Part shown: positions 15,407 to 59,436 of the stretch, in pieces | Numbering within the stretch: position 1 is the first letter of the stretch | Layout: each line of letters begins with the position of its first letter | NCBI GenBank assembly: GCA_963766655.1 | Contig: CAVYBB010000002.1 | Span: 300,300 to 364,299, forward strand | DNA length: 64,000 bases | Direction of reading: 5' to 3' | Origin: an uncultured Chloroflexia bacterium | GTDB lineage: Bacteria > Chloroflexota > Limnocylindria > Limnocylindrales > CSP1-4 | Translations under genes and position numbers: made by a program | The notes under the pieces: generated by a model | Database searches by the model: none | Seen by the model: only the letters and a program-made list of their open reading frames with translations | Told to the model about the DNA's origin: nothing

Positions 15407-15454
15407 GCCGGCCAGGAGCAGGACGCGCGCCCGCGGTCAGGGTCCATTGGCACC

Positions 15455-28028: not shown

Positions 28029-28155
28029 GGCGAGAGAGCTCCGCACGGGATCCAACGGGCGACACCTGAAAGTATAGGGTCGCGGACCGTCGGAGCCGAT
28101 CGGCGCCTGCCCGTGGAGCGGTCGCCGGTCGTCCGGACCGGGCTATCCTGCGAGC

Positions 28156-37760: not shown

Positions 37761-38426
37761 ATGAAGATCTTCCTCGACACCGCCGACATCGAAGAGATCC
37801 GGATCGTCGCGCGCTGGGGCGTGCTCGACGGCGTGACGACGAACCCGACGCTCTTCGCCAAGACCAGCGGCGCGACGTACGAGGAGGTCCTCAAGGAGAT
37901 CTGCACGATCACGAGCGGACCGGTCTCGGCGGAGGTCGTCGCCGAGGACGTCGAGGGGATGCTCAGCGAGGGCCGGGCGTTCGCCAAGCTCGCCCCGAAC
38001 ATCGTCGTCAAGGTCCCGATGAGCGAGGAGGGCCTCGAGGCGATCAGCCGGTTCGCGGACGAGGGCATCAAGACCAACTGCACGCTGATCTTCACGGCGA
38101 ACCAGGGGCTCCTCGCCGCGAAGGCCGGCGCCTCGCTCCTCAGCCCGTTCGTCGGGCGGCTCGACGACATCAACCAGGACGGGATGATCGTGATCCGCGA
38201 GCTCGTCGAGATCGTCGAGATCCACGAGCTGGACACCGAAGTCCTCGCGGCCTCGATCCGGAATCCGCTCCACATGACCCAGGCCGCCCTGGCGGGCGCT
38301 CACGTCGCGACGATCCCATTCAAGGTTCTTCGACAGATGGTCCACCACCCGCTCACCGACTCGGGGATCATCCAGTTCCGGGCCGACTGGGAGAAGGCGC
38401 GCCAGGCGCTCGCCGCCAAGGCCTGA
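37761..38426 (+). CDS. Short-type transaldolase / fructose-6-phosphate aldolase (TalC/Fsa family)
   Basis: MKIFLDTADIEEIR...GVTTNPTLF, the lysine region IVVKVP; 221 aa. AGGAGC as RBS. Confidence 0.8.
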   Translation: MKIFLDTADIEEIRIVARWGVLDGVTTNPTLFAKTSGATYEEVLKEICTITSGPVSAEVVAEDVEGMLSEGRAFAKLAPNIVVKVPMSEEGLEAISRFADEGIKTNCTLIFTANQGLLAAKAGASLLSPFVGRLDDINQDGMIVIRELVEIVEIHELDTEVLAASIRNPLHMTQAALAGAHVATIPFKVLRQMVHHPLTDSGIIQFRADWEKARQALAAKA

Positions 38427-38447: not shown

Positions 38448-39554
38448 CTAGGCTGGGCGCGCGTCCGGGTCTGGGAGCACCACGTCGCGGACGGCCCCGA
38501 CGAGGTCGTGATACGACTTGATGAACCCGCGCAGGGTTCGGACGGTCGCGCCGTAGCCGTCGAACTCGTCGACCGTCAGACCGGTGGGCTCGTAGGCCCG
38601 CCTGAAGTCCGGGATACGGTCGAGCAGATCCTGGACCAGTGCGGGATCCACCGGTTCGTCGATCCGTGTCTCGGGCGTGACCCCGCTCCCGTTGAACCGC
38701 TCCTGCCAGGCATGGGTCATCGTCAGGATGACGTCGCCTCCGACGAGCTCGGTCCAGTGGAGCCGGTGCCGGTATGCCGCGGCAAGCAGCCGGGTCCGAT
38801 AGCCGCGCTCCTGGAACACGCCGTACGCCCGCTTGAACGCCGCGATCCCCGCCCAGTTGAGTGCGTCGGGGTGGACGGCGATCTCATCACGATCCGCGAC
38901 GACCCGCATCCAGTCGTCCAGGCGGCCGATCATCATCGTGCAGACGGGCGTGACGGCGGTCGGGTCCGCCCCGCGCGCGGCCAGGGCATCGAGGCCCCGC
39001 TCGACCGCGTCGGCGACCGCGATGGCCTGCGCGACCGTGAAGCACACGGTGGCATTGATGCTGACGCCGGCAGCCGTCGCCTGCTCGACGGCCTCGATCC
39101 CGGCTCGCGTGGCCGGAAACTTCACCTGGATGTTCGGGGCGAGGCTCGCGAACCGGATCCCCTGTTCGAGCATGCGCTCGGTATTCGTGTAGTCCGCCGG
39201 GTTCGTCTGCAGCGACAGCCGGCCCTTGCGGCCGGCCTCCCGTACGAAGACCGGCTCGAGAACGCCTGCACCGCGCACGGCCATCTCCTCGATGACGGCC
39301 CAGGTGAGGTCGGTCTCGGTCCAGGAAGGGTTGGCTGCGGCAAGGTCCGTGATCCGCGGAACCCAGTGGGCGCGCTCCTTGCGCAGCACCTCGAGCACGA
39401 TGCTCGGGTTCGACGTGGCGCCGGTGGCCCCGCGGGCGACGGCATACTCGAGCTCGTCGCGGGCGCATGAATCGTTCCAGTAGTCGGTCGGCCGATCGGT
39501 GACCGTTCGAAGCATCGGGCAGTCGATGAGGCCCAGCGGGGCGACAGCTGTCAC
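38448..39554 (-). CDS. tal: Transaldolase (long, ~368 aa type)
   Basis: TSNPSI, FPAT and active-site Lys context IQVKFPAT. GTG start with GGAGGGA as RBS. Confidence 0.8.
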   Translation of the reverse strand: MTAVAPLGLIDCPMLRTVTDRPTDYWNDSCARDELEYAVARGATGATSNPSIVLEVLRKERAHWVPRITDLAAANPSWTETDLTWAVIEEMAVRGAGVLEPVFVREAGRKGRLSLQTNPADYTNTERMLEQGIRFASLAPNIQVKFPATRAGIEAVEQATAAGVSINATVCFTVAQAIAVADAVERGLDALAARGADPTAVTPVCTMMIGRLDDWMRVVADRDEIAVHPDALNWAGIAAFKRAYGVFQERGYRTRLLAAAYRHRLHWTELVGGDVILTMTHAWQERFNGSGVTPETRIDEPVDPALVQDLLDRIPDFRRAYEPTGLTVDEFDGYGATVRTLRGFIKSYHDLVGAVRDVVLPDPDARPA

Positions 39555-39665
39555 CGTGTCCCTCCTGAAGGAGGTCGCGCAATGGCGACGCAGGCATCAT
39601 AATCGATCATCGATAACACGCCAACGTGACGGCGGGAATCCAGGAGAACCCTCGGAGGGCCAACC

Positions 39666-41450
39666 GTGGCAGCGAAAGAGGAGATCCTCGGCCAGTTCCT
39701 GGGAGACGCGACGTTCCCGGTGGCCTGGGAGTCCGAGGTCGAGAAGGACTTCTTCTGGGTCTACGACGACCTGCACTGCCCGCATCCGGTCAGCCCGATG
39801 TTCTTCGACATCGGTGGGTGGTGGCTCAGCTGCGATCACATGTTCCGGCGCTTCGGGACGCCGTTCGCGGTCGATTGGCTGGCCAAGAACGTCAACGGCT
39901 ACGTGTACACCACGGCCATTCCGGCCGACCCGGAGTTGCGCATCGACGCGACCGAATACAGCGCCCGGTATGGCGCCCGGGTGCCGCGCGACGCGGCCTT
40001 CGCAACGACGATGGGCGCCTACCTCGACACGGTCCTGCCGATCTACGGCCGGGACTTCGCGGACTGGTGGCGGGATCGCCTGCGCCCCGAGATGGAGCGC
40101 AACTTCGCCTTCCTCGAGGCACGGCTCGACGAAGCCGACGGGATGAGCCTGGCCGACGTCGCCTGCCTCCTCGAAGACGCCATCGACGTCCACGATCGGC
40201 ACTGGAAGATCCACTGGATGCTCAATTTCGCCCAGCTGTCGGCGACGCTCGACCTGCGGGCGGTCATGGAACGGACCCGTGGCGGCGTCGACGAGCAACT
40301 CCTGGGGCGACTCCAGAATTCCGCCTCCGACCGCAACTGGGACTCGATCGAGGCCCTCTGGCGCATGAAGAACGACGTGCGCGACGACGCCGAGCTCCGG
40401 GCCGCGTTCGCGCCCGACGACGTGGCCGAGATCCGCCGATCCCTCGCCGCCTCCGAACGCGGCCGGCGGTTCATCGACGAGCGGCTCGAGCCCTACCAGC
40501 GCGAGTTCGGCTGGCACGCCGTCTGGAGCCACGAATTCATCTTCCCGACCGTCCGCGAGCAGATGGGGCCGGTCATCGAGCTCGTTCGAGATTACCTGCG
40601 GACGGACTACGACTTTCCCAGCGCGATCGAGGCGATGCGGCTCGACATCGCGGCCGCGTCGCGCGAGATCCTCGACGGCCTGACCGGCGAGGCGCTCGAG
40701 GAGATGCGCGCGGCGAACGCCGTCAACCTGCGGATGGCGCCCCTCACGCCGGACCATCACTTCTACATCGACCAGGGGGCGAACGCCCACGTCCGCCTCG
40801 TCCTCATGGCGGTCGGCCGGAAGCTCGTCGATGCCGGTCGCCTCGACGTGCCGGACGACGTGATGTACCTGCGCTACAACGAGTTGCGCGCGCTCATCGG
40901 CAGCGCGACGGCGCTCGATGCCCGGGCGATCGTCGCCGGACGCCGGCTCGAGCGGGAAGCCGCCGCGGGCCTTCAGCCGCGTGACTGGGTCGGCACGGTC
41001 ACCCCGTCGCAACTGGCCTTCCCGTATCTCGTCAACTGGGGCTACCCGGATCGCTTCTACCAGAAGCAGTCGGACGACCAGCTGCTGATCACGGGCCTCG
41101 GCGCGTCCCCGGGGGTCATCGAGGGCATCGCCCGGGTCGTGCGCACGATCGACGAGTTCGACGAGGTGCGCGACGGTGACATTCTCGTGTGCCAGATGAC
41201 GAACCCCGCCTGGGTCGTGCTCTTCACGAAGATCGCCGGTCTCGTCACCGATACCGGAGGCACCACCTCGCACCCGGCGGTCCTCGCCCGCGAATTCGGG
41301 ATTCCCGCGGTCATCGGCACCTCGGTTGCGACCCAGAGGATCGTCACCGGCGACCACCTGAGGCTCGACGGGACGGCAGGGCGGGTGGAGATCCTGCGCG
41401 GCGAGCCTGCCGGATCGGCCGGCGGGCCGGCCACGGCAGTCGGGCTCTGA
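39666..41450 (+). CDS. PEP-utilizing-enzyme family protein (N-terminal domain of unknown function plus C-terminal swivelling phospho-His domain)
   Basis: C-terminal mobile domain GLVTDTGGTTSHPAVLAREFGIPAVIG (PEP-utilizers His motif). The N-terminal ~420 aa has no ATP-grasp signature. First gene of an 8-gene operon. Confidence 0.65.
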   Translation: MAAKEEILGQFLGDATFPVAWESEVEKDFFWVYDDLHCPHPVSPMFFDIGGWWLSCDHMFRRFGTPFAVDWLAKNVNGYVYTTAIPADPELRIDATEYSARYGARVPRDAAFATTMGAYLDTVLPIYGRDFADWWRDRLRPEMERNFAFLEARLDEADGMSLADVACLLEDAIDVHDRHWKIHWMLNFAQLSATLDLRAVMERTRGGVDEQLLGRLQNSASDRNWDSIEALWRMKNDVRDDAELRAAFAPDDVAEIRRSLAASERGRRFIDERLEPYQREFGWHAVWSHEFIFPTVREQMGPVIELVRDYLRTDYDFPSAIEAMRLDIAAASREILDGLTGEALEEMRAANAVNLRMAPLTPDHHFYIDQGANAHVRLVLMAVGRKLVDAGRLDVPDDVMYLRYNELRALIGSATALDARAIVAGRRLEREAAAGLQPRDWVGTVTPSQLAFPYLVNWGYPDRFYQKQSDDQLLITGLGASPGVIEGIARVVRTIDEFDEVRDGDILVCQMTNPAWVVLFTKIAGLVTDTGGTTSHPAVLAREFGIPAVIGTSVATQRIVTGDHLRLDGTAGRVEILRGEPAGSAGGPATAVGL

Positions 41451-41463
41451 AGGCGGTTCGGAC

Positions 41464-42168
41464 ATGACGATCGCGCGCGCACTCTCGCGCAGCGTCCTGG
41501 CCGACCAGGTCAAGGAGCGGATCCTGGAAGGGATCCTCAACGGTCACTACCCACTGGATTCGCGGATCGTCGAGACCCAGATCGCCCGCGAGCTCGGGAC
41601 GAGCCAGGCACCGGTCCGCGAGGCACTGCGCGGGCTCGAGGCGATCGGCGTCGTCGAGATCACCCCGTTCCGCGGCGCCAGGGTCCGCCGCCCGTCCCGG
41701 CGCGAGATCATCGAGGCCTACGCCGTCAGGTCGACCCTCGAGGCGCTGGCCGCCCGCCTGGCGGTGTCCCGGATGACCGACCAGGATCTCGTCGAGCTTG
41801 CCGGCGATCACGAGGCCATGCAGGCCGCGGCTCGCGCCGGCGACGGTCACCGCGTGGCCGAGGCCGATGCCCGCTTCCACCGTCGAATCGTCGAGATCGC
41901 CGGCAGCGGGACGCTGGAAAAGGTCTGGCACTCGCTCGAGCCCTTCTCGCGGACGTACATCACGCTGGTCGCCCCGGGGGCCGACCCGCAGTGGTCGGCG
42001 GACCTCCACGCCCCGATCGTCGCGGCCCTCGAACGCCGCGACACCGACGCGGTCGTGGAAGCCCTCCAGAAACACTTCGACGACATCAGCGACAACATGT
42101 CCCGGCGCTGGCCGGACGATGAAACGACGGAGGTCGTCAACCTCCCCGGAAACCGAAGGAACGCATGA
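41464..42168 (+). CDS. GntR-family (FadR/FCD subfamily) transcriptional regulator
   Basis: N-terminal wHTH (LDSRIVETQIARELGTSQAPVREALRGLEAIGVVE) and a C-terminal FCD domain. Confidence 0.8.
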   Translation: MTIARALSRSVLADQVKERILEGILNGHYPLDSRIVETQIARELGTSQAPVREALRGLEAIGVVEITPFRGARVRRPSRREIIEAYAVRSTLEALAARLAVSRMTDQDLVELAGDHEAMQAAARAGDGHRVAEADARFHRRIVEIAGSGTLEKVWHSLEPFSRTYITLVAPGADPQWSADLHAPIVAALERRDTDAVVEALQKHFDDISDNMSRRWPDDETTEVVNLPGNRRNA

Positions 42169-43052
42169 CCTCCACCTTGCAGCTATCGGAGGAGATGTCG
42201 GCGGGTCCCGCGCGTCTCCGTGTCGACGTCCACGGCGCCGAGCCGCTCGAACATGTCCTCGACGACCTGACCTTCCTCAACTACCGCCTCGCAGACGTTC
42301 GCATCTCGCCCGACGTCACGCTCGCCGAGCCCGACATCGTCTGGCACCAGGATGCCGCCAAGGGAATCTCCTACGACGGCCATCGGATGACCTTCAGCGG
42401 GCCATGGCCGGCCGGCCCGATCCAGAAGGTGGTCGTCACGATGCTGGCCCTCCGGATGGAGGCGGCCGGCCTTCATCCGTTCCATGCCTCGGCGGTTCGC
42501 TATCGCGACCGGACGGTGCTCTTTCTCGGTGGCGAGTCGAACCACGGCAAGTCAATGGGCCAGATCGAGGCATGCCGCCGGGGGGCGATGCTCGTCTCGA
42601 CCGAGACCACGGTCATCGACGAAACCGGTCGGGCCGTCGTCGGATCCAGGCAGCCGTTCCTCAAGAAGCGCACGGAGGGTACCGAGCGGGCCGACAAGGC
42701 GGCGCCGGACCGCGCCGTCGAGAAGTTCTTCGGCGAGCTGCCGAGCTGGCAGATCTACGACGAGCCGAGCAACGTCGACGTCGTCATCGTCCCCGCGATC
42801 GACGGCAACTTCGACCCGTCGAGCGCCGACATGATCCCGTTCGAGCGCCAGTTCCAGACGTTCCACTCGGTCCAGAACTACCTCCTGCTGAACGAGTTGC
42901 TCGCCCCCGGCTTTCCGATGCCGGTCGTCGACACGGATCCGCTCCGCGCGGCGCGCGGCGACTTCGTCCGCCGGTTCTCGGAGCGTCCCTACTTCTTCGT
43001 CCGGGCTGCCTCCCCGCAGGTGCTCCTGGACGAGGTGGATCGGGTGCTCTAG
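42165..43052 (+). CDS. HPr kinase/phosphorylase C-terminal-domain-like P-loop protein
   Basis: LHPFHASAVRYRDRTVLFLGGESNHGKSMGQIEACRRGAMLVSTETTVID matches the HprK-like P-loop (GxSGxGKS...G..LV.D). ATGA overlap with the GntR gene. Confidence 0.5.
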   Translation: MTSTLQLSEEMSAGPARLRVDVHGAEPLEHVLDDLTFLNYRLADVRISPDVTLAEPDIVWHQDAAKGISYDGHRMTFSGPWPAGPIQKVVVTMLALRMEAAGLHPFHASAVRYRDRTVLFLGGESNHGKSMGQIEACRRGAMLVSTETTVIDETGRAVVGSRQPFLKKRTEGTERADKAAPDRAVEKFFGELPSWQIYDEPSNVDVVIVPAIDGNFDPSSADMIPFERQFQTFHSVQNYLLLNELLAPGFPMPVVDTDPLRAARGDFVRRFSERPYFFVRAASPQVLLDEVDRVL

Positions 43053-43060
43053 GCCGGACC

Positions 43061-43933
43061 ATGCGAGCCTTTGCCTACGAGCGACCGGCCAGCCTCGGCG
43101 ATGCCGTCGCCCTGCTCGGCGACCATGGTCCCGAGGCGCGGGTGCTCGCCGGGGGCACGGACCTGATCATCCGGCTCAGGGACGGATCGATCCAGCCCCG
43201 GATCGTGGTCGACATCAAGCGGATCGCCGAGCTCGACGGGGAGATCCGCGATGACGCCAGCCAGGTGGTGATCGGGGCGCGGGCGGTCATGACGGACATC
43301 GCCGCGGACGAGCGCATCCGGCGCGATTACGAGGCCCTCGCCGAGGCCGCGTCCGTCGTTGGTGCGGTCCAGATCCGGAACCGGGCGACCCTTGCCGGCA
43401 ACGTCTGCAACGCGTCGCCGGCGGCGGACACGGCGCCGGCCCTCCTCGTCTACGGCGCCCGCGTCGTCGCGGCAGGTCCCGAGGGGATCCGGCGGATCCC
43501 GATCGACGAGTTCTTCGTCCGGTCGGGCGTCACGACGCTGGCCCGTGGGGAGCTCGTCACGGCGATCGAGCTGCCGCGCCCGGCGGGCCGTCGGGGAGCC
43601 GTCCACGTGCGACGGACCCGGCGCCGGGGCCACGACCTCGCCTCGGTCACCCTGGCATGCGCGGTCCTCGCCGACGGGGTCACCCGGCTGGCCTACGGCA
43701 GCATGGGCCCCCGGCCGGTCCTCGTCGTCGACGAGAGCGGCCTCCTCGCCGATCCCGCGGCGCCGGATCTCGCGAAGATGCAGCGACTCGAGGAGTTGTT
43801 CGTCGATGCCAGCCCGTCCGCCCGATCGATGCGGGCGAGCCCGGACTACCGCCTGGCGATGCTGCACGTCCTCGGGCTCCGGGCGATCGGCACCGCGATC
43901 GACCGCCTCGCCGAGGAGCCCGTCCGGCGATGA
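43061..43933 (+). CDS. Xanthine dehydrogenase/CO dehydrogenase-family FAD-binding subunit (CoxM/XdhB-like)
   Basis: FAD_binding_5 motifs (AGGTDLI, TLAGNVCNASPAAD). 290 aa. Confidence 0.8.
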   Translation: MRAFAYERPASLGDAVALLGDHGPEARVLAGGTDLIIRLRDGSIQPRIVVDIKRIAELDGEIRDDASQVVIGARAVMTDIAADERIRRDYEALAEAASVVGAVQIRNRATLAGNVCNASPAADTAPALLVYGARVVAAGPEGIRRIPIDEFFVRSGVTTLARGELVTAIELPRPAGRRGAVHVRRTRRRGHDLASVTLACAVLADGVTRLAYGSMGPRPVLVVDESGLLADPAAPDLAKMQRLEELFVDASPSARSMRASPDYRLAMLHVLGLRAIGTAIDRLAEEPVRR

Positions 43934-44415
43934 CGGCGACCCTCCGAATCGAGATGACCGTCAACGGTCGCGCGCGCGCGATCGACGTCGCGCCGCATCA
44001 CACGCTCCTCGAGGTCCTCCGCGAGGATCTCGGTCTCACCGGGACCAAGGAGTGCTGCCTCGTCGGCGAGTGCGGCGCCTGCACGGTCCTGGTCGACGAC
44101 GTGAGTGTCGACTCATGCCTGGTGCTCGCGGTCGAGGCCGATGGCGCGACGGTGACGACGGTGGAGGGGCTCAACGCAGGCGATCGGCTCCACCCCCTCC
44201 AGGCGGCGTTCCTCGAGAGCGGCGCGGCCCAATGCGGGTTCTGCATCCCGGGCCAGCTGGTGTCGGCGCAGGCGCTGCTCGCGCTCAACCCGGACCCGAC
44301 GCGGGCGGACGTCGAAGAGGGCCTCGCCGGCAACCTGTGCCGCTGCGCCGGGTACACCCAGATCATCGAAGCCGTCCTCGCCGCCGCCGCTGCGACCCGA
44401 GGCACAGAGCAATGA
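43930..44415 (+). CDS. (2Fe-2S)-binding subunit (CoxS-like)
   Basis: CxxGxCGxC and CGFC...CRCxGY cysteine motifs. ATGA overlap with the FAD subunit gene. Confidence 0.85.
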   Translation: MTATLRIEMTVNGRARAIDVAPHHTLLEVLREDLGLTGTKECCLVGECGACTVLVDDVSVDSCLVLAVEADGATVTTVEGLNAGDRLHPLQAAFLESGAAQCGFCIPGQLVSAQALLALNPDPTRADVEEGLAGNLCRCAGYTQIIEAVLAAAAATRGTEQ

Positions 44416-46658
44416 GCGACCAGGGCGTGGGTGCGTCGCCTGCCCGGGTCGGCGGGCTCGACCGGGTCACCGGTCGACAGGCGTATGTGGCCGACATCCG
44501 TCTCGACGACGTGCTCCACGCGAAGCTCGTCAGCCTCGACTGTGCCCGGGCACGGATCATCGCCATCGACACCAGCGCCGCCCTCGCGGTCCCCGGCGTC
44601 CGCCTCGCGATCACTGCGGCGGACCTCCCGCAGCCGGTCCCGCGCTTCGGCCCGCAGTTCCAGGATCGGCCGGTCCTCGCGGTCGGCGAGACCCACTATC
44701 ACGGTGAGCCTGTTGCCGCGATCGCCGCAGAGACGCACGACGCCGCGGAGGAGGCTGCCCGCCTCGTCCGGATCGAGTACGAGGAGCTGCCCGCGGTCTT
44801 CACGATCGCCGCCGCCCTCGATCCGGCCGCGCCGCTCGTCCAGGATCCGTCACTCCGGCCGGACGATCCGTTCGCGGCAACCAACGTCCTCCGCGAGCAC
44901 CACTACGGCTGGGGCGACGTGGAGGCGGCGGCCGCGGACGTCGTCGTCGAGGGGACCTACACGTTCCCGATGGTCACCCAGTTCGCGATCGAGCCGCACG
45001 CATTCATGGCGGCCCCGGACGACGATGGCATCGCCATCTGGAGCTCGATCCAGCACCCGAGCTGGCTGCAGCGGGTCATCGCCGAGCTGCTGCACCTGCC
45101 ACTCGCCAAGGTCCGGGTGTTCGCGCCCGACCCGGGCGGCGGCTTCGGCGGGAAGCAGCACGCCAAGTACGAGCCGCTGGTGGCGTTGATGGCCCTCGCG
45201 GCCGGCCGGCCGGTCCGCCTGGTGCTGACACTCGAGGAGACCTTCCAGGCCGTCCGGCGCGGAGCCTCGGAGATCCGCGTCCGCTCGGGATTCCGGACCG
45301 ATGGACGCCTGGTCTTCCGGGACATCGAGGCGAACTACCTGATCGGCGCGTACGCCGACATCGCCGACCGGACTGTCGCCAAGGGCAGCTACTCCTCGGG
45401 CGGGCCCTACATGACGCCGGCCGTGCGGATCGTGGCGCGAAGCATCCTCTCGCACACGACTCCTTCGACCGCCTTCCGCGGCTTCGGCAATCCGCAGCAG
45501 ATCTGGGCGGTCGAATCGAACATGGACGAGGCCGCCCGGGCGCTCGGCGTCGACCCGCTCGCGCTCCGTCTCATGAACCTCGCCCGGCCGGGTGACGCCT
45601 TCATACCCGGCGACACCCCGGCCGACGGTGACTGGGCCCGGACCGTCGAGCGGGCCGCCGAGCTGATCGGGTGGGGGACTCCAACGGCGCCCGGTCGTGG
45701 TCGTGGCCTGGCCGTCGGGCTCAAGTCCGGCCCGACGACGGGTCTCTCCTATTCCACCGTCCGCCTGCTCGCAGACGGGAGTGTCATCGTCCATGCCGGC
45801 ACGTCCGACATGGGCCAGGGCGCCCGGACGATCTTCGCCCAGATCGCGGCCCAGGAGCTCGGCGCGCCGCTCGACTGGGTCACGATCATCATGGGCGACA
45901 CTGCCGTCGTTCCGTACGACCAGCAGACGTCGGCGAGCCGATCGTCCGTGCTGATGGGCAACTCGGTGCTCCTGGCCTGCCGCGACGTCCAGGCGAAGCT
46001 ACGGGCGATGGCGGCGAGGCTCGAATCCGTCGAGGAGGCCGCGGTCGTCGTCGATCGCGGTGAGGTCCGGATCGGCGAGCGCGTCCTGCCCATCCGCGAC
46101 GTGCTGATCCGGGGACTCGGCCGGCTTGGCGGCGAGATCATCGGGATCGGCGAGATGCGCAAGGAGGCCGAGCCAGAGCACCCGCTGGGCGGGACGGCGG
46201 CGTTCTTCGAGTTCAACTGCACCGCCGTCGAGGTCGAGGTCGACCGGGCCACGGGCGACATCGTCATCGCCCGGCACGTCACCGTGTCGGACGTGGGCAA
46301 GGCGCTGAACCCGCTCCAGGTCCGCGGCCAGGACGAGGGCGCCGCGATCATGGGCCTCGGCCACACGCTGATGGAGCACTACATCTACGACGACGCCGGC
46401 AGGATCCGCAACCTCGGCGCGATCGACTACCGGATCCCGACCAGCATGGACCTGCCGCTCGTCCTGGAGAGCGCGATCATCGAGAACGAGGACGGGCCAG
46501 GGCCGTACGGCTCGAAGGGGATGAGCGAGGGCGCCCTCCTCTGCGTCGCCCCGGCCGTGGCGGCCGCCGTTCGGGACGCCACCGGCGTCGTGATCCGCGA
46601 TCTGCCCCTGTCGCCGGAGCGGGTCTGGCGCGCGCTCAACGACTCGTCGGGCCGATGA
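44412..46658 (+). CDS. Xanthine dehydrogenase-family molybdopterin-binding large subunit (CoxL-like)
   Basis: Ald_Xan_dh_C and C2 domains (GGGFGGK, the FRGFG-like region, and the C-terminal E...G..E region). ATGA overlap with the FeS subunit gene. Confidence 0.85.
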   Translation: MSDQGVGASPARVGGLDRVTGRQAYVADIRLDDVLHAKLVSLDCARARIIAIDTSAALAVPGVRLAITAADLPQPVPRFGPQFQDRPVLAVGETHYHGEPVAAIAAETHDAAEEAARLVRIEYEELPAVFTIAAALDPAAPLVQDPSLRPDDPFAATNVLREHHYGWGDVEAAAADVVVEGTYTFPMVTQFAIEPHAFMAAPDDDGIAIWSSIQHPSWLQRVIAELLHLPLAKVRVFAPDPGGGFGGKQHAKYEPLVALMALAAGRPVRLVLTLEETFQAVRRGASEIRVRSGFRTDGRLVFRDIEANYLIGAYADIADRTVAKGSYSSGGPYMTPAVRIVARSILSHTTPSTAFRGFGNPQQIWAVESNMDEAARALGVDPLALRLMNLARPGDAFIPGDTPADGDWARTVERAAELIGWGTPTAPGRGRGLAVGLKSGPTTGLSYSTVRLLADGSVIVHAGTSDMGQGARTIFAQIAAQELGAPLDWVTIIMGDTAVVPYDQQTSASRSSVLMGNSVLLACRDVQAKLRAMAARLESVEEAAVVVDRGEVRIGERVLPIRDVLIRGLGRLGGEIIGIGEMRKEAEPEHPLGGTAAFFEFNCTAVEVEVDRATGDIVIARHVTVSDVGKALNPLQVRGQDEGAAIMGLGHTLMEHYIYDDAGRIRNLGAIDYRIPTSMDLPLVLESAIIENEDGPGPYGSKGMSEGALLCVAPAVAAAVRDATGVVIRDLPLSPERVWRALNDSSGR

Positions 46659-48784
46659 CGCTCGCCTTCGCGCTCGACGCACCGCATGCACTCACGCTCG
46701 CCGAGACGACGGCGCTCATCGGCGGCAAGGCCGCCAACCTCGGGGTGATGTCGCGCGAGCTGGGTCTTCCTGTGCCACCCGGCTTTGCGATCACGACCTC
46801 AACGTGCCGGGACTATCTCGCCGGCGGTTGGCCGGCCGGCCTCGACGACGAGCTTCGGGTCCGGATGGCCGGCGTGGAGGCGGCCGTCGGGCGTCGTTTC
46901 GGCGACCCGGAGGATCCGCTCCTCGTCAGCGTCCGGTCCGGTGCCCCAATCTCGATGCCCGGGATGATGGACACGATCCTGAACCTCGGGTTGAACGATG
47001 CGACGACGGGCGGCCTGGCGCGCACTGCCGGCGGCGACGCGTTCGCGCGAAGCTGTCGCGAGCGGTTTGCGACGAGCTTCCGGGCAATCGTCGGCGTCGA
47101 CGACATCCCCGAGGACCCCTGGCGCCAGCTTCGCCTGGCGATCGAGGCTGTCTTCCGATCGTGGAACAGCGACCGGGCCGTAGCTTACCGTCGGAGAGAG
47201 GGGATTCCGGACGACCTCGGGACGGCGGTGACCGTCCAGGCGATGGTCTTCGGCAATCGCGGTGCGACCTCGGCGACCGGGGTCCTGTTCACCCGCAACC
47301 CGGCGACCGGCGAGCCGACGCTCTACGGCGACGTCATGTTCGACGCCCAGGGCGAGGACGTCGTCGCCGGGACGCATCGGACCGAGCCGATCGACGTCCT
47401 CGACGAGCGCCTGCCATCGCTCGCCGCGGAGCTTCGGGGCTACGCGACGCGGCTCGAGCGGCACTACGCCGATCTATGCGACATCGAGTTCACGATCGAG
47501 GAGGGCAGGCTCTGGATGCTCCAGGTCCGGGTTGGCAAGCGCAGCCCGCAGGCCGCGCTTCGGATCGCCGTCGACATGGCGCAGGACGAGTCGTTCCCGG
47601 TGTCGCGGGCGGACGCGGTCGGGCGTGTCGCCTCGCTCCTCGCCCATCCGCCGACGACGTCGAGCGCCCACAGCAGCTTCGTCGTTCCGATCGCGACGGG
47701 TCTGCCGGCCTCGCCGGGCATGGCGAGCGGTCCGATCGTCACGAGCCCCGAGGCCGCCGAGGCAGCGGCCGAGGCCGGACGGGCGGCAATTCTCGTCCGG
47801 GCCGAGACCTCGCCCGACGACGTCCACGGGATGGCCAGGGCAGCCGGCATCCTGACATCCCGCGGTGGGCTGGCGAGCCACGCCGCCGTCGTCGCCCGTG
47901 GTTGGGGGATTCCGGCCGTGGTCGGCGCCGTGGGGATCGAGGTTCGCGACGGCCAGGTCGTCATCGGCTACAGGGTCCTGAACGCCGGCGACGTCGTCAC
48001 GATCGACGGCAGCACCGGCGAGGTCTACGAGGGGACGGTCCCGGGAGCGACGGAAGTGGTGCCCGAGGCCCGGACGCTGCTGACGTGGGCGAAGGAGCTC
48101 GGGATCGCGATCGGTGATGACGCGGCGGCCGCCGATCCAGCGAGCGTCCCGGCGGCCGCACGCAAGGTGACTCCCGACGACTGCCTCCGGGCGATCGCGA
48201 TCAAGGGCTTCGCCCAGCCCCAGGGCGTGGCCGACGTCGTGCTGTCGACGCCGGACGCGGTCCGCCCGATCCTCGATCAACTGGTCATCGACGGCCTGGT
48301 GGCATCGGTCGCGGGCGCCCATCGCCTGACCGAGGCGGGAACGACCCGGTCGGGCCTCCTGCGCGCCGCGGAGCAGGTGGCCTGGGGCGTCGATCATGCC
48401 GCCGCGGCGCTCGACGCCTTCGTCGATCTCGACCACCGGATGAAGGACGCGGTGACCGCGTGGCAGCTCCGTGGCGACCCGCAGGAACAGTTAGTCAACG
48501 ACCACTCGGATGCCGCGTACGATCGGGGAGTCCTCGACCGGCTGGCCGGCCTCCACGCCGATGCCATGACGTGGCTGACGCCCCTCGAGCAGGGCTGTCC
48601 CCGGCTGGCGGATTACCGGGCCCGGCTCGGCCGGGCGATCGAGCTTGCCCAGGGCGGCGACCAGCGGTATGTCGCGTCGCCGCGCGTCGACAGCTACCAC
48701 GGGATCTGGTTCGAGCTGCACGAGGACCTGATCCAGCTCGCCGGCCGCAGCCGCGAGGACGAAGTTGCCGCAGGACGGGCGTAG
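46655..48784 (+). CDS. Pyruvate-phosphate-dikinase-like protein: N-terminal ATP-grasp (PPDK_N), central phospho-His domain, and a ~230 aa C-terminal domain of unknown function; no PEP/pyruvate TIM barrel
   Basis: N-terminal motif LIGGKAANLG...GFAITT, central swivel domain GGLASHAAVVARGWGIPAVVG. ATGA overlap with coxL. Confidence 0.7.
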   Translation: MTLAFALDAPHALTLAETTALIGGKAANLGVMSRELGLPVPPGFAITTSTCRDYLAGGWPAGLDDELRVRMAGVEAAVGRRFGDPEDPLLVSVRSGAPISMPGMMDTILNLGLNDATTGGLARTAGGDAFARSCRERFATSFRAIVGVDDIPEDPWRQLRLAIEAVFRSWNSDRAVAYRRREGIPDDLGTAVTVQAMVFGNRGATSATGVLFTRNPATGEPTLYGDVMFDAQGEDVVAGTHRTEPIDVLDERLPSLAAELRGYATRLERHYADLCDIEFTIEEGRLWMLQVRVGKRSPQAALRIAVDMAQDESFPVSRADAVGRVASLLAHPPTTSSAHSSFVVPIATGLPASPGMASGPIVTSPEAAEAAAEAGRAAILVRAETSPDDVHGMARAAGILTSRGGLASHAAVVARGWGIPAVVGAVGIEVRDGQVVIGYRVLNAGDVVTIDGSTGEVYEGTVPGATEVVPEARTLLTWAKELGIAIGDDAAAADPASVPAAARKVTPDDCLRAIAIKGFAQPQGVADVVLSTPDAVRPILDQLVIDGLVASVAGAHRLTEAGTTRSGLLRAAEQVAWGVDHAAAALDAFVDLDHRMKDAVTAWQLRGDPQEQLVNDHSDAAYDRGVLDRLAGLHADAMTWLTPLEQGCPRLADYRARLGRAIELAQGGDQRYVASPRVDSYHGIWFELHEDLIQLAGRSREDEVAAGRA

Positions 48785-48832
48785 CCGCGTGACAGCAAGT
48801 GAGTGACATCGGTGTGAGCTAGCCTGAAGCGC

Positions 48833-49441
48833 ATGCCATTAGCCGAGTCGTCCGCCTTCTTCACCATCGACGAGAACCAGCGCGGTCTCGGCGTCATGCC
48901 CGACGAAGACGTCGATCTCCGAGGGCTCCTCCGCGGCTCATGGGTTCCGCGCGAACCAATCCCCTTCCGGCCCAACGTCGGGAGCGTTCCCAGCGATCTG
49001 ATCATGGGTGGGGCGATCGAGACATGGCTGATTTCCGCCAAATTTCGGAGCGTTCTGGAAGCCGGCGGCTTTACGGGCTGGTCGACCTACCCCGTAGCGC
49101 CACGTGGCCGCCGCGGAGTGTCCCTCGATGGATATTCAGGCCTGTCGATCACCGGACGAGCTGGCCTTCCGAGGTGGGAGCAAAGCCAACCATTCGTCAC
49201 TCAATACGTGCCCAACGGGCCGCCCGTGCCGTGCGTCCGAGGCATCTACTTTGACGCGGACACATGGGATGGCAGCGACATGTTCCTTCTGGGGGATTAC
49301 GGCTATCGCATCGTCACCGCGAACGTTCGCAACGCTCTCGTCGCCGCTAAGATTCGGAATGTTCGTTTCGGCCGCCTGTCAGAGCGTGAGATCGCCGTGA
49401 GTGCGATGAGGCGCGAGGTTCAGTCGCTTTTCACGGAGTGA
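48833..49441 (+). CDS. Hypothetical protein in a lower-GC islet
   Basis: Local GC of ~60% versus ~72% elsewhere, with atypical codons (tta, aaa, ttt). No recognisable catalytic motif. Confidence 0.45.
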   Translation: MPLAESSAFFTIDENQRGLGVMPDEDVDLRGLLRGSWVPREPIPFRPNVGSVPSDLIMGGAIETWLISAKFRSVLEAGGFTGWSTYPVAPRGRRGVSLDGYSGLSITGRAGLPRWEQSQPFVTQYVPNGPPVPCVRGIYFDADTWDGSDMFLLGDYGYRIVTANVRNALVAAKIRNVRFGRLSEREIAVSAMRREVQSLFTE

Positions 49442-49814
49442 CATTGGCGCACGCTGAGCGATCACAGGGCGCTCTATCCTCCGGGGTGGGTTCGCAAGGT
49501 GGGTGACCGGGATTCCCGGAACTGGCTGGTTGGCTTCTTGGGCCTTCCGCGGCTTGCGTGGAAGCACCTGCGAGCGACACAAGACTCGGGAGCAGGGTCC
49601 GCCAAGTTGGATCCGAGCCTGACGGTCGTCATCGAGACGGCCGGGTCGGGCGTCCAGGTATCAGGGTCGGCAAAGTCCCCGACGGGACCCGGGCTCACCG
49701 TCAGCGACTTCCACACGTTCGGCCTCGGCGAGGGCGAACTTGACGGGATCGGCCAATTGCTGATAATCGGGACAAGAGAGCCCCTGAATTATCCGATTAT
49801 CCGTAGTTGGTGTC

Positions 49815-50882
49815 ATGCACAGCTTCCTCGACCTGGACCGAACGCTCGGCGCCCAGCCCCTCCGACTGGGCGCTCGTCTGGCGAGCCTCGATGTCCGGCG
49901 CGGGCGAGAAGGCATGTACCGGGACCAGCTTCCACAGATCCTGGAGGCGCTTGCCGAAACGACGCGGATCGAGTCGATCACCGCGTCGAGCGCGATCGAG
50001 GGCATCGTCGTCGATCCAGGTCGCATCAAGCGCCTCGCCGAAGGCGGTGAGACCCGCCGGTTCCGCAACCGGAACGAGCGCGAGTTCGCTGGCTACCGGG
50101 ACGCGATCGACGAGATCGCGCGAGCGAGGACGCTCGAGACGCTCAGCGTGCCCTACATCCTCCACCTGCACCGGCTCCTGTTCGGTCACACCAACGGCGG
50201 CGGCGGTCGCCTGAAGACGGACCAGAACTACATCGCGAGCTACGAGCAGGGGCACCGGACGATCCTCTTTACGCCGTCGTCGCCCAAGGAGACCCAGTCC
50301 TTCCTGCCCGAGCTCCTCGTGCGCTATAACGAGGCGGTCGAGAACGACGCGGCCCACCCGATCCTGTTGATCGGGGCGCTCATCCTCGACTTCCTGGCAA
50401 TCCATCCCGTTGCCGACGGCAACGGTCGGCTGGCCCGCCTGCTGACCACACACACGCTGCTCCAGCGGGACTACGGTGTCTCGCGCTACGTCAGCATTGA
50501 GCAGCGGATGTTCGAAACGAGGGACGCGTACTACGACGCGCTGTACGCGGCGCAACGAAACTGGCACACAGGCGCGCACGACATCTGGCCGTGGATCGAC
50601 TATCTCGTGGGCGTGCTCGAGGACGCCTACGACGATTTCGAGGCCAGGATCGCTGCACGACGAAGCCTGTCCTCCCTCTCGAAGCAGGGACAGGTTCGCC
50701 AGTACGTGCTGGAGCACGCCCCGCGCGTCTTCCGCCTGCGAGACGTTCGCGCCGCCCTCCCGGGCGTGAGTGATCCGACGATCAAGCTCGTGCTCGCACA
50801 GCTTCGACGGGACGGCTCGATCGAGCCCGCCGAGGCTGGAGCGAGCGGGCCGCGGGCCGCGTGGCGCCGAGCGTCCCCGTAG
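49815..50882 (+). CDS. Fic-family protein (class II, carrying an N-terminal inhibitory SxxxEG motif)
   Basis: Fic motif HPVADGNGRLARLL, N-terminal inhibitory motif SSAIEG, and a C-terminal winged-helix-like extension. Confidence 0.8.
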   Translation: MHSFLDLDRTLGAQPLRLGARLASLDVRRGREGMYRDQLPQILEALAETTRIESITASSAIEGIVVDPGRIKRLAEGGETRRFRNRNEREFAGYRDAIDEIARARTLETLSVPYILHLHRLLFGHTNGGGGRLKTDQNYIASYEQGHRTILFTPSSPKETQSFLPELLVRYNEAVENDAAHPILLIGALILDFLAIHPVADGNGRLARLLTTHTLLQRDYGVSRYVSIEQRMFETRDAYYDALYAAQRNWHTGAHDIWPWIDYLVGVLEDAYDDFEARIAARRSLSSLSKQGQVRQYVLEHAPRVFRLRDVRAALPGVSDPTIKLVLAQLRRDGSIEPAEAGASGPRAAWRRASP

Positions 50883-50888
50883 CCGCCC

Positions 50889-51785
50889 TCAGCGGCCCTT
50901 GGCGTAACCCGTGGCAGTGAGCTTGTCCCAGAGCGTCCCGGCGTTGTTGTTCTGGATGTGATCCATCATGTAGGCCTGTCCGACGTCGACCGGGCCGAAC
51001 GCGTCGTCGAAGCGGACCCGGGCGATCGTTTCCTCGCGCGTCCAGCCCTTCGCCACCGCGTCGGCCACGGCGGCCTTCCACTGGAGCAGGACGGAGCGTT
51101 GCGTGTTGACGTACTTGATCGTCTGCACGGGACCATGGCCCGGGATCAGGTGGTCGACGTCGAGCTGGCGGATCCGCTCGAGCGCCTCGATCCACTGGTC
51201 GACGTTCGAGGTCATCAGCCACGTCTGGCACTCGCTGAAGATCGTGTCGCCGGTGAACACGACGCGCTCCTCCGGGACGTGGACCGCGAGCTGGCCGGGC
51301 GTGTGGCCGGGCGTCCACAGGCAGTGGAACGTGTGGTCGCCGACCTTGAGCGTCAGGTCGCCGGTGAAGACGACCGTGCCGCGGGGCAGCGCGGCGTAAT
51401 AGTCGTCCCGATCAGGGAGGAGCGCCGCTCCGTCGGGGTCATCGGTGGGGATCGCCTCGAGCGCGTAGGCGAACGGGTCGAGCGCCGCGTTCGGATCCAT
51501 GAAGATGTCGTACAGCGCCTGGTGGTTGACGACCTCGCCGGCGCCGCGGAACCACCAGTTGCCGAAGATGTGGTCGACGTGGTTCTCAGTGTTGATCAGG
51601 TAGCGGATGGGGCCGTGCGACTCGGCCTCCGCGCGCATCGCGACCGCGCGCGTCGGCAGCTGCGGCGTGTCGATCACGACGACGCCGTCAGAGGTGGTGA
51701 CGAAACTCGGGTTGCAGCCGCGCAGCTTCGTCGTCGTGAAGATGTTCGGCGTGACGCGCTCGAGATCGAGGGTCCCTGCGGGCAT
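50889..51785 (-). CDS. MBL-fold metallo-hydrolase
   Basis: HxHxDH motif (TENHVDHIFG) and downstream His/Asp ligands. Confidence 0.75.
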   Translation of the reverse strand: MPAGTLDLERVTPNIFTTTKLRGCNPSFVTTSDGVVVIDTPQLPTRAVAMRAEAESHGPIRYLINTENHVDHIFGNWWFRGAGEVVNHQALYDIFMDPNAALDPFAYALEAIPTDDPDGAALLPDRDDYYAALPRGTVVFTGDLTLKVGDHTFHCLWTPGHTPGQLAVHVPEERVVFTGDTIFSECQTWLMTSNVDQWIEALERIRQLDVDHLIPGHGPVQTIKYVNTQRSVLLQWKAAVADAVAKGWTREETIARVRFDDAFGPVDVGQAYMMDHIQNNNAGTLWDKLTATGYAKGR

Positions 51786-51802: not shown

Positions 51803-52588
51803 TTACTGGGTCGCGGTGAGACCGCCGTCGATCCCGAGGACCTGGCCGGTCACGAACGATGCGGCGTCGGAACAGAAGAAGATCGCCGGGCCGACGAGGT
51901 CACGCGTCTCGCCCACGCGGCCGAGCGGAATCCGGCTGACGATGCCAGCCTTGAACGCCGGGTCCGCGAGCAGCATGGCCACCTGGGGCGTGTCGACGAA
52001 CGTCGGCATGATGGCGTTGACGCGGATGTCGTACTTCGCCCACTCGGTCGCCCACTGCCGGGTCAGCGAGCTGATGGCGCCCTTGGCCGCCACGTACGCC
52101 GAGTAGCCGGCATTGATCCCGAGGTTGGCGCGCACGGACGAGATGTTGAGGATGCGTCCGCCCCTGCCCCGTTCGATCATCGCCCGGACCACAGCCTGGG
52201 TGGGCACGATCGTGCTTCGGACGTTCAACTCCATGATCCAGTCCCAGTCCGACCGCGGGTATTCCTCGGCGGGATGGAGGACCTTGCCGGCGCCCCCGCC
52301 GACCGCGTTGACCAGGATGTCGATTTGACCGAATCGCTCGAGAGTCTCCTGGACCATCCGCTCGCCGTCGGATTCGCTCGTCGCGTCGGCCGTGATCGCG
52401 AGGCCCTCGGATCCGGCCGCCGCAATCCGCTCGACAGTGGCATCGCATGTCTCGCGGGTCCGGCCGGCCACGGCGACCCGAGCCCCGGCACCGGCCAGCG
52501 CCTCGGCCAGTGCGGACCCGATGCCGCCTCCGCCGCCCGGGATGAGAGCGACTCGTCCCTCCAGGCTGAAGATGTCGAGTGGCCTCAT
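51803..52588 (-). CDS. SDR-family oxidoreductase
   Basis: Motifs GGGGGIG, NAVG and YxxxK (YSAYVAAK). Confidence 0.8.
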   Translation of the reverse strand: MRPLDIFSLEGRVALIPGGGGGIGSALAEALAGAGARVAVAGRTRETCDATVERIAAAGSEGLAITADATSESDGERMVQETLERFGQIDILVNAVGGGAGKVLHPAEEYPRSDWDWIMELNVRSTIVPTQAVVRAMIERGRGGRILNISSVRANLGINAGYSAYVAAKGAISSLTRQWATEWAKYDIRVNAIMPTFVDTPQVAMLLADPAFKAGIVSRIPLGRVGETRDLVGPAIFFCSDAASFVTGQVLGIDGGLTATQ

Positions 52589-52715
52589 CGTGCTCCTTCG
52601 GGCGATGGCCGCGGGACGTCCGCTTCGCGCGTTTGATCGATTATCGAGAATAGCCGAGCGGCGATACAGCGTCAACGCGCCCGCCCGCCCGAGACCCTCC
52701 GGCGCGGCGAGCCCG

Positions 52716-54149: not shown

Positions 54150-54206
54150 CGCTAGGAGCCTCCGTCCTGGGCGGCGCTGCGCGGCGCCGATGTCATCGCC
54201 TTGAAC

Positions 54207-55994: not shown

Positions 55995-55995
55995 G

Positions 55996-59376: not shown

Positions 59377-59436
59377 CGGTCAGCGAGCCTCGCCTCGAAC
59401 CAGGTACCAGCGCGCATGACGCGGCGGACCCGGAGG

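Follow-up and report, generated by a model that had tools for sequence, protein, structure and literature searches.

A stretch of DNA of 64,000 nucleotides (hereafter the window) from a soil bacterium, a member of the Limnocylindria (CSP1-4, Chloroflexota), was analysed. At 39666-48784 it carries seven tightly packed genes, g1 to g7, in which the predicted parts of a two-component small-molecule dikinase lie together with a GntR-family regulator, a P-loop protein of PEPCK/HprK-type fold and the three subunits of a molybdenum (Mo) enzyme of the xanthine dehydrogenase (XDH) family. This set of genes is a real, conserved functional module. We propose, giving it an even chance of being correct, that the locus is a GntR-controlled catabolic operon in which the dikinase O-phosphorylates a hydroxylated aromatic or heteroaromatic compound and the Mo enzyme then oxidizes the phosphorylated compound.

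Genes were called by frame analysis of third-position G+C (GC3) and by inspection of start codons in the window, which has a G+C content of ~70%. The seven co-directional genes fill the interval on the + strand as follows.

39666-41450, + strand: g1, 594 aa, predicted H component of the dikinase
41464-42168, + strand: g2, 234 aa, GntR-family regulator
42165-43052, + strand: g3, 295 aa, P-loop protein of PEPCK/HprK-type fold
43061-43933, + strand: g4, 290 aa, flavin adenine dinucleotide (FAD) subunit
43930-44415, + strand: g5, 161 aa, two-[2Fe-2S] subunit
44412-46658, + strand: g6, 748 aa, Mo-pterin subunit
46655-48784, + strand: g7, 709 aa, predicted ATP-grasp donor of the dikinase

Four junctions (g2/g3, g4/g5, g5/g6 and g6/g7) are ATGA overlaps and the remaining ones are gaps of 13 nt (g1-g2) and 8 nt (g3-g4), as expected from a preliminary description of the sequence that had reported such overlaps or very short gaps. 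That description had the coordinates right and counted eight genes; the correct number is seven. An ORF at 48833-49441 was considered as an eighth gene and rejected, as its GC3 signal is weak, it belongs to no family and it is missing in all 82 related Limnocylindria loci. A promoter and terminator scan returned no + strand signal within the operon and was otherwise uninformative. The domain calls of the preliminary description agree with Pfam for all genes except g3.

The product of g1 is predicted to be the H component of a dikinase of the HpeHI/CreHI/PpsAB type. HpeH, CreH and PpsA each consist of a substrate domain like that of rifampin phosphotransferase (RPH) and a swivel domain with the motif T/SxxGGxxxH (PMC12167813). 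The split-dikinase reading made at the outset fits this pattern by NCBIfam and Pfam: in g1 an RPH-like substrate-binding domain precedes a C-terminal swivel domain, which Pfam recognizes as the PEP-utilizers mobile domain (residues 502-572, E=4e-25), and the swivel motif TDTGGTTSH at residues 528-536 ends in the predicted phospho-histidine, His536. In NCBIfam, g1 aligns over its full length, below threshold, with the PRK08296 "hypothetical protein" models, and its C-terminal two-thirds align, also below cut-off, with RedH, PigC and RPH (116 bits against a cut-off of 999 for RPH, and 146 against 1350 for RedH). The PDB matches are to the C-terminal part of RPH, and orthologues of g1 in public assemblies bear PF27448 (Rph_4th) and PF00391. 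For neither of the two PEP-utilizing proteins, g1 and g7, do these comparisons indicate an ordinary PEP synthase or RPH orthologue, every such NCBIfam score being far under cut-off.

The ATP-grasp donor of the dikinase is predicted to be g7, the sole ATP-grasp gene of the window. Pfam assigns it PPDK_N and PEP-utilizers domains, the latter with a swivel histidine of its own, His409 in GGLASH. Its first ~480 residues match solved PPDKs with about 400 bits, and residues 18-482 pass the truncated-PPDK model NF004531. The alignments to PPDKs in the PDB stop at residue ~482, where the PEP/pyruvate TIM barrel would start, and no PEP-utilizers_C domain was found by Pfam. We rejected g7 as a true PPDK on the absence of this barrel and on a TIGR01828 score of 525.7 against a cut-off of 843.45. 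The earlier statement that both g1 and g7 lack the barrel was borne out by Pfam and by a fold model of the g7 C-terminus. In that model (residues 480-709, pLDDT 88), a MarR-type winged helix is followed by a four-helix bundle. The same region is homologous to free-standing ~200-aa proteins (hhalign 99.9% and 99.8%) that adjoin truncated PPDKs of 506-542 aa on plasmids of Diaphorobacter and M. avium, where an H-type gene is also found; residues 18-482 of g7 are 45% identical to the 506-aa truncated PPDK of the Diaphorobacter plasmid. Because its C-terminal domain is homologous to a small protein encoded beside truncated PPDKs elsewhere, g7 can be seen to unite in one chain a truncated PPDK and the small protein that usually accompanies it. 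The combination of an H protein with a truncated PPDK is thus a recurring pairing. The I component of known systems is a free-standing, PEP-synthase-like protein of about 340 aa with PPDK_N only, and g7 does not conform to it. Canonical I proteins (~270-370 aa, PPDK_N only) are encoded in the sister clusters of Gaiellaceae, Thermomicrobium roseum, Nitrososphaerales and Thermococcus described below, and g7 is 22-28% identical to the I proteins of such clusters.

The plasmids themselves, NZ_CP049906.1 of Diaphorobacter (L094 10236-15036) and NZ_CP076857.1 of M. avium (L096 5628-11883), share a recurring four-part set that adjoins oxygenase and P450 genes. It comprises a DUF7065 protein (~300 aa), an H-type enzyme, the ~200-aa winged-helix/helical protein and the truncated PPDK (506-542 aa). 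The set appears to be an undescribed dikinase system, and its small partner appears to be the one fused into g7. An 871-aa g7 ORF in locus L030 was examined as a version with a TIM barrel and rejected: its alignment with g7 stops at residue 476, and the remainder resembles an out-of-frame read-through in a long-read assembly.

The genes g4 to g6 encode an FAD/2x[2Fe-2S]/Mo enzyme of the XDH family that is probably oxidative. Pfam finds FAD_binding_5 (E=2e-48) and CO_deh_flav_C in g4, Fer2 and Fer2_2 in g5, and Ald_Xan_dh_C, MoCoBD_1 and MoCoBD_2 in g6. The NCBIfam matches of g5 (XdhC, PucE and the gamma subunit of glyceraldehyde dehydrogenase) are all under cut-off, as is g6 for every NCBIfam equivalog. 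The g6 protein contains GGGFGGKQ (residues 242-249), AFRGFGNPQ (residues 354-362) and the catalytic Glu706 in GMSEGAL. The Gln of GGGFGGKQ stands where purine-specific XDHs have Glu, and the Mo=O Gln is retained; the roles of these residues (the catalytic Glu, the Mo=O Gln and the purine-specific Glu) are assumed here from general background on the XDH family. Since Glu706 is present, the Mo enzyme is probably active. XDH proper is marked by a Glu after GGGFGGK and CODH by a VAYRCSFR loop. Both assignments were tried for g6 and rejected on its GGGFGGKQ motif, its AFRGFGNPQ loop and scores of 440 against 780 for XdhA and 243 against 991 for aerobic CODH.

The nearest solved relative of g6 is the alpha subunit of 4-hydroxybenzoyl-CoA reductase (4-HBCR; 1rm6_A, 342 bits), followed by quinoline 2-oxidoreductase (250 bits). 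This ranking raises the possibility of a reductive mode like that of 4-HBCR, in which the Mo enzyme would remove a phenolic oxygen that the dikinase had turned into a phosphate leaving group. Phenylphosphate synthase and 4-HBCR do act in the same anaerobic phenol pathway. Such a mode is nevertheless extremely unlikely here. The inverted electron flow of 4-HBCR is defined by a [4Fe-4S] insertion in its beta subunit; g4, with 290 aa and only 2 Cys, has none. The 4-HBCR models are missed by a wide margin, with g6 scoring 439.7 bits against the TIGR03194 cut-off of 994.55 and the g4 match to TIGR03195 being far under cut-off and split into two stretches. The active-site loop of g6 is XDH-like (AFRGFGNPQ, as opposed to GAMRGHGTVD in 4-HBCR), the cluster has no gene for a CoA ligase or a low-potential ferredoxin, and the hosts belong mostly to aerobic soil lineages.

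The third gene encodes an uncharacterised P-loop protein with a PEPCK/HprK-type fold. The label of HprK-like P-loop protein given to g3 at first holds for the fold superfamily and fails for the family. No Pfam or NCBIfam model reaches threshold (Hpr_kinase_C 12.4 bits against a cut-off of 33.3, E=0.12; PEPCK_ATP E=0.13), no HprK N-terminal domain and no NCBIfam match were found, and the structure is closer to PEPCK than to HprK. In other words, g3 has the PEPCK-like-fold P-loop kinase domain of HPr kinase/phosphorylase without matching the family model, and it has neither the PEPCK_ATP/GTP model matches nor the two-domain size (>500 aa) of a PEP carboxykinase. The one signal at the level of sequence is a weak alignment to the PEPCK of T. 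thermophilus. In this alignment W81-PAGPIQ-K88 (W81-x-x-G-x-x-Q-K88) of g3 falls on the YAGExKK motif of PEPCK, H107 in HPFHASA on the His of the MHASA (MHxSA) motif, and the Walker A sequence G123-ESNHGK-S130 on the P-loop; a metal-binding role of H107 is our assumption from PEPCK.

The g3 family is small: a search of 1.84 billion proteins gave 182 representatives at E<=0.001, and 425 species genomes of a GTDB-based collection encode a relative. Members down to 36% identity agree at about 38 positions, of which many are charged, and no functional annotation was found among the members examined. The gene directly adjoins a dikinase gene in the Gaiellaceae and Nitrososphaerales loci and in L083 and L088. 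Two proteins considered as divergent forms of g3 were rejected: a 205-aa hypothetical protein of T. roseum, which is DUF4202-like (hhalign probability 0.15%), and the ~300-aa protein encoded beside H on the plasmids of Diaphorobacter and M. avium, which is DUF7065 (0.25%). A tblastn search found no g3 homologues on plasmids.

Conservation of the module was examined in 82 Limnocylindria loci, comprising 80 species-level genomes and two contigs from metagenomes or metagenome-assembled genomes. At least five of the seven genes are present at a coverage of 70% or higher in 69 of the 82 loci, 58 of these 69 being colinear; the other loci are mostly truncated contigs or rearrangements within 10 kb. 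Median identities are 80% for g1, 69% for g2, 80% for g3, 72% for g4, 74% for g5, 79% for g6 and 67% for g7. The gene neighbourhood, which the preliminary description had from a single sequence, is therefore kept in about 80 species-level genomes, and it extends across phyla and domains.

In Gaiellaceae (Actinomycetota), the order SDR-H-GntR-cyclase-I-g3 is convergent with FAD-FeS-Mo-TAL (TAL, transaldolase-family gene), and a branched-chain-type ABC transporter lies alongside; identities to the window are 60% for g1, 58% for g3, 62% for g6 and 58% for TAL. The megaplasmid of T. roseum carries ABC transporter-UPF0261-PEP_hydrolase-GntR-cyclase-I-DUF4202-FAD-FAH-ABM-H-Mo-FeS, where ABM is an antibiotic biosynthesis monooxygenase gene directly before H. 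As this H/I/Mo set is without g3, g3 is not obligatory. A Nitrososphaerales archaeon has FAD-FeS-H-Mo, with the H gene between the FeS and Mo genes, beside SCP2-g3-I. On the same contig (L084 1-3607), a second XDH-family trio lies beside the one containing H, and the two Mo subunits are 27% identical. In T. sibiricus and related Thermococcus, tungsten AOR-family genes stand in place of the XDH-family Mo genes: the clusters hold I, a cyclase, two tungsten AOR-family genes with a polyferredoxin gene, HMGL-like-g3-cupin, UPF0261 and H. On the Thermococcus contigs L090 and L091 (1-16200), the polyferredoxin gene is flanked by the two tungsten AOR-family genes, and formamidase, ThiS-like, DUF169, HMGL-like, cupin, UPF0261 and PCC-domain genes are also found. 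The cyclase-family gene (kynurenine formamidase/isatin hydrolase type) of the Gaiellaceae, T. roseum and Thermococcus clusters shows 40-68% mutual identity.

The same parts thus recur in rearranged form, and g1 shares 36-60% identity with the cluster-linked H proteins compared to about 25-28% with H-type proteins encoded on Rhodococcus and Azoarcus plasmids. For these reasons the tie of this H subfamily to a pterin-dependent oxidoreductase and the tie of g3 to dikinase genes are far beyond chance. The identities also suggest that the cluster-linked H proteins form a group of their own. The clusters of T. roseum and Thermococcus also contain UPF0261, a protein shown to be an aromatic kinase (MarK; PMC12624787), which strengthens the view that such clusters handle phosphorylated aromatics.

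Within the Limnocylindria, locus L030 has a cyclase-family gene and a Zn-dependent alcohol dehydrogenase gene between g6 and g7 (14519-16492). With the core cyclase found in Gaiellaceae, T. roseum and Thermococcus, the L030 cyclase shares an identity of only about 25%. A similar g6-g7 gap of ~2 kb in L036, L039, L051, L056, L062, L067, L070 and L071 is probably the same insertion.

The regulator g2 combines a GntR domain (E=1e-13) with an FCD effector domain (E=1e-27) by Pfam, and a GntR gene is likewise part of the Gaiellaceae and T. roseum clusters and of the 3hpd cluster discussed below (orf7). Upstream of the H gene, the 13-bp motif ATCGATNATCGAT is found in two phyla. The two features of the spacer region are given here.

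39602-39614: candidate operator ATCGATCATCGAT, motif ATCGAT-N-ATCGAT, in the spacer between the divergent transaldolase-family gene and g1
38448-39554, - strand: transaldolase-family gene, 368 aa, Pfam TAL_FSA (E=9e-39), divergent from g1

The window contains a single exact copy of the 13-mer, as do most related loci. In 37 of 67 Limnocylindria loci it precedes the alignment start of g1 by no more than 400 nt, 31 times at a distance of 38-82 nt, and it is also upstream of the H gene in the Gaiellaceae loci L092 and L093, the spacers being otherwise divergent. The 13-mer is probably the binding site of the GntR/FCD regulator g2 and hence a candidate operator. In L020, L021, L024, L031 and L042, a small ORF (about 7200-7500) lies between the operator and g1; it looks ABM-like from its N-terminal sequence MSYVVTATWKAKPGEE.

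A regulatory role for the phosphotransfer proteins has to be weighed against this background. In such a phospho-relay, g7, g1 and the HprK-like g3 would act as an on-off switch for transcription or for the Mo enzyme; phospho-regulation of that enzyme had been raised as an alternative from the start. The g7 C-terminus does contain a MarR-type winged helix, and g1 keeps a Thr at position -2 of the swivel His (GGTTSH), the regulatory phosphorylation site in PPDK and PEP synthase. That PPDK-type Thr is, however, replaced by Leu in the H proteins of the distant, g3-containing loci L084 and L088; for this reason we also discarded the idea that g3 phosphorylates the swivel Thr in the manner of PDRP. 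Elsewhere the winged-helix/helical module occurs as a separate protein that partners truncated PPDKs, which fits an adaptor subunit, and the I protein of the other lineages is a bare ATP-grasp without winged helix or swivel. Moreover, H retains its large RPH-like small-molecule-binding domain (~500 aa) at 36-60% identity across all lineages, and a dedicated GntR regulator and a candidate operator are already there. We consider a regulatory relay very unlikely.

The catabolic scheme proposed at the beginning has its precedent in Ensifer adhaerens HP1. In this organism HpdA1-4 (Mo, FeS, SRPBCC and FAD subunits) converts 3-hydroxypyridine to 2,5-dihydroxypyridine, and in a heterologous host it did so only when orf9, a "pyruvate-phosphate dikinase", and orf10, a "PEP-utilizing protein mobile subunit", were co-expressed (doi 10.1101/2020.01.08.898148). 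Knockout of either orf9 or orf10 abolished growth on 3-hydroxypyridine, and the GntR gene orf7 is adjacent (doi 10.1101/2020.01.08.898148). The authors suspected a CreHI-like phosphorylation and left the role of the dikinase open (doi 10.1101/2020.01.08.898148). The genetic need of a Mo hydroxylase for a dikinase is established in 3hpd only, and for the window it would hold by analogy. For HpeHI/AcvAB, CreHI and PpsAB, O-phosphorylation of phenols through a swivel His with conversion of ATP to AMP is established (PMC12167813).

The domain identities, the fold of g3, the fusion architecture of g7 and the conservation of the operon across phyla are observed; from there we infer which substrate is used, in what order the steps run, and what g3 and the second swivel domain, that of g7, do. 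The ATP-grasp of g7 would bind ATP and the swivel His would take its beta-phosphate, with ATP converted to AMP and Pi; the swivel in question would be His536 of g1, possibly relayed via His409 of g7. The RPH-like domain of g1 would then hand the phosphate to a phenolic or enolic hydroxyl of a small aromatic or N-heteroaromatic compound. The Mo enzyme would oxidize this phospho-compound with oxygen derived from water, by hydroxylation of a ring C-H or oxidation of an aldehyde, and the electrons would leave through the Fe-S clusters and FAD. Finally, g3 would act on the phosphate of the relay, most plausibly by removing or transferring that of the intermediate or by handling the gamma-phosphate.

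Several points weigh against this scheme. A phosphorylated intermediate was not detected even in the 3hpd study (doi 10.1101/2020.01.08.898148). The 3hpd cluster has a separate SRPBCC subunit, HpdA3, whereas g1-g7 and the neighbours scanned have no SRPBCC/CoxG domain; its maleamate genes hpdBCDE likewise have no counterpart among the 30 window proteins scanned with Pfam, which are part of the window ORFs. The H/I/Mo set of T. roseum does without g3, and the swivel His and winged-helix domain of g7 would be superfluous for a simple ATP-grasp donor. The accessory genes give mixed hints: transaldolase and the HMGL-like gene point to aldol chemistry, and the cyclase, FAH, ABM and cupin genes to a (hetero)aromatic ring. 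Ring hydroxylation accords less well than aldehyde oxidation with the swap to tungsten AOR-family enzymes in Thermococcus.

The two halves of the scheme could also run in the reverse order. The Mo enzyme would hydroxylate an N-heterocycle beside the ring nitrogen to give a lactam or pyridone, and the dikinase would then O-phosphorylate the lactim or enol oxygen and so activate the ring for substitution or for opening by hydrolysis; the cyclase-family amidohydrolase of the sister clusters is one enzyme that could carry this out. ATP-dependent activation of lactams is established in 5-oxoprolinase and hydantoinase-type enzymes, and PigC and RedH, which are among the NCBIfam matches of g1, phosphorylate a carbonyl-type oxygen. 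The orthologous cyclase-family gene of the Gaiellaceae, T. roseum and Thermococcus clusters, with formamidase and FAH genes close by, would suit such a ring opening. The core cyclase is missing from the window's own cluster, however, and the 3hpd dikinase is needed for the first visible conversion, that is, for the Mo step itself and not a later one. We regard the reverse order as unlikely.

Aldol chemistry deserves separate mention, given the transaldolase-family gene and the tungsten enzymes. An aldolase (transaldolase/FSA in bacteria, HMGL-like in archaea) would free an aldehyde for oxidation by the Mo or tungsten enzyme, the dikinase would form an enol or acyl phosphate, and the PEPCK-like g3 would use it by transfer to ADP, with or without carboxylation. 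The AOR and XDH families both include aldehyde oxidoreductases, so that the replacement of one by the other in Thermococcus can be read in this way. The TAL gene shares an operon with the Mo genes in Gaiellaceae and is transcribed away from g1 in the window, an HMGL-like gene comes directly before g3 in Thermococcus and before H-g3 in L088, the best score of g5 is to the glyceraldehyde dehydrogenase gamma subunit (below cut-off), and the PEPCK-like metal and phosphate motifs are kept in g3. On the other hand, the characterised H-type dikinases all act on phenolic or antibiotic hydroxyls, g6 is nearest to 4-HBCR and quinoline oxidoreductase rather than to aldehyde oxidoreductases, and neither type of aldolase is found in the T. 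roseum or the Nitrososphaerales locus. The TAL/FSA gene may also belong to the adjacent pentose-phosphate region. An aldol pathway is, in our opinion, decidedly unlikely.

A bolder version of the catabolic scheme would treat H, the ATP-grasp protein and g3 as an ancient portable module that feeds phosphorylated (hetero)aromatic or enolic substrates to Mo or tungsten pterin oxidoreductases, with g3 as a new enzyme class, a mini-PEPCK phosphotransferase reclaiming phosphate from the oxidized product. This is quite unlikely. If it were true, aerobic bacteria and a thaumarchaeon would use Mo XDH-family partners and Thermococcus tungsten AOR-family ones, and the phosphate would go to ADP or Pi, possibly with carboxylation, and thus be a recyclable handle rather than a consumed group.

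The transaldolase-family gene is probably an associated gene of the operon. It adjoins the cluster in 36 of the 82 Limnocylindria loci, and its Gaiellaceae orthologue lies directly downstream of the Mo subunit gene. It could be a housekeeping rather than a pathway-specific gene because pentose-phosphate genes are nearby. Genes related to pentose phosphates and nucleosides surround the cluster at 22062-30047 and 37761-38426 of the window and include a 6PGD-like dehydrogenase, a transketolase, a PfkB kinase with an Indigoidine_A-family protein, and a TAL_FSA protein of the fructose-6-phosphate-aldolase type. We take the PfkB and Indigoidine_A pair to resemble the pseudouridine kinase/glycosidase pair.

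Downstream of g7, the stretch at 48785-50885 has lower GC3 and separates g7 from a metallo-beta-lactamase gene. It holds the ORF at 48833-49441 and a Fic/DOC-domain gene at 49815-50882. This variable ~2 kb with flanking promoter-like sites is missing in relatives such as L002, where g7 abuts the gene of beta-lactamase fold, and it looks like a recent insertion. A second XDH-family cluster lies on the - strand at 53135-57039, in which 55996-57039 encodes the FAD subunit and about 55515-55988 the FeS subunit. The reading frame of the Mo subunit is interrupted and gives three ORFs (54193-55848, 53373-54149 and 53135-53578), which suggests a pseudogene or an assembly frameshift. Genes for a cupin (52716-53105), an SDR (51803-52675) and a metallo-beta-lactamase-fold protein (50889-51785) follow on the same strand. 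Beside this second cluster are an ABM gene recognized by Pfam (58232-58519) and a creatininase-family gene (58581-59498). A copy of the operator with one mismatch, ATCGATTATCGAG, is located at 52636-52648 between the cupin and SDR genes, and because of this copy the SDR/metallo-beta-lactamase pair may join the regulon. In L027, L049, L054 and L064, a second exact copy of the operator lies 8-10 kb downstream of g3.

Mo hydroxylases are normally held to need only a substrate, water and an electron acceptor. The 3hpd cluster is the one published case of a genetically required dikinase, and it came without a mechanism. The findings reported here indicate that the link between dikinases and pterin enzymes is old and widespread, spanning two bacterial phyla, two archaeal lineages and a swap from a Mo to a tungsten enzyme. 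The locus adds a previously unannotated PEPCK-fold protein family and a defined candidate operator, and the cultured hosts T. roseum and T. sibiricus make the mechanism testable. If phosphorylation generally primes hydroxylated aromatics for Mo and tungsten enzymes, the annotation of such clusters would change in soil and peat genomes, where Limnocylindria abound. We found no follow-up paper on 3hpd in the literature, and none on a cluster of the window's type (phenylphosphate synthase with the XDH family, Thermomicrobium or T. sibiricus).

Compared with known proteins, g3 shares with PEPCK and HPr kinase the Walker A loop and the residues aligned with the YAGExKK and MHxSA motifs. It is about half the size of PEPCK, lacks the N-terminal domain of HprK, fails both Pfam models (11-12 bits) and belongs to a small, entirely unannotated family that always occurs beside dikinase genes. 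RPH and PigC/RedH are of the same dikinase superfamily and swivel mechanism as g1, which aligns with their substrate-binding and swivel parts, but they are single polypeptides of ~865 aa. The PRK05878-type truncated PPDK, which we take to be the type of M. tuberculosis Rv1127c, and its ~200-aa neighbour supply the same parts as g7, where they are fused into one 709-aa protein; the plasmid systems of this type have the DUF7065 protein in place of g3, whereas the window version is embedded in a Mo enzyme operon.

HpeHI, CreHI and PpsAB resemble the window in the H/PpsA architecture and T/SxxGGxxxH motif of g1 and in having the ATP-grasp on a separate polypeptide, and the ~270-370-aa PPDK_N-only I protein of the sister clusters matches these systems. 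They differ in several respects. Position -2 of the His is Met in these systems and Thr in g1, and g1 is only about 25-28% identical to the H-type plasmid proteins of Rhodococcus and Azoarcus. The partner of g1 is instead the PPDK-type g7 with a swivel His of its own, and the downstream enzyme, a biotin or UbiD carboxylase or a P450 in those systems, is here a Mo hydroxylase. PpsC is a CBS-domain protein. In comparison with PpsABC, the third protein here is the PEPCK-fold P-loop protein.

The closest comparison is with 3hpd, which, as described, shares the XDH-family Mo, 2x[2Fe-2S] and FAD subunits beside PEP-utilizing, PPDK-like and GntR genes. The combination had first been taken as not described before; the E. 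adhaerens HP1 cluster is a precedent (doi 10.1101/2020.01.08.898148), and because a dikinase-dependent Mo hydroxylase has already been reported, the module is not categorically new. Orthologous 3hpd clusters are listed in 38 strains, including Gaiella occulta; those in Actinomycetota comprise Gaiella and Solirubrobacterales, among others (doi 10.1101/2020.01.08.898148). Variovorax and M. avium plasmid matches that we considered as 3hpd equivalents proved to be other systems. The locus is nevertheless distinct from 3hpd in three respects: it has no SRPBCC or maleamate genes, its ATP-grasp protein combines a truncated PPDK with a winged-helix/helical domain in one chain, and it adds, along with the transaldolase, a new PEPCK/HprK-fold family in g3.

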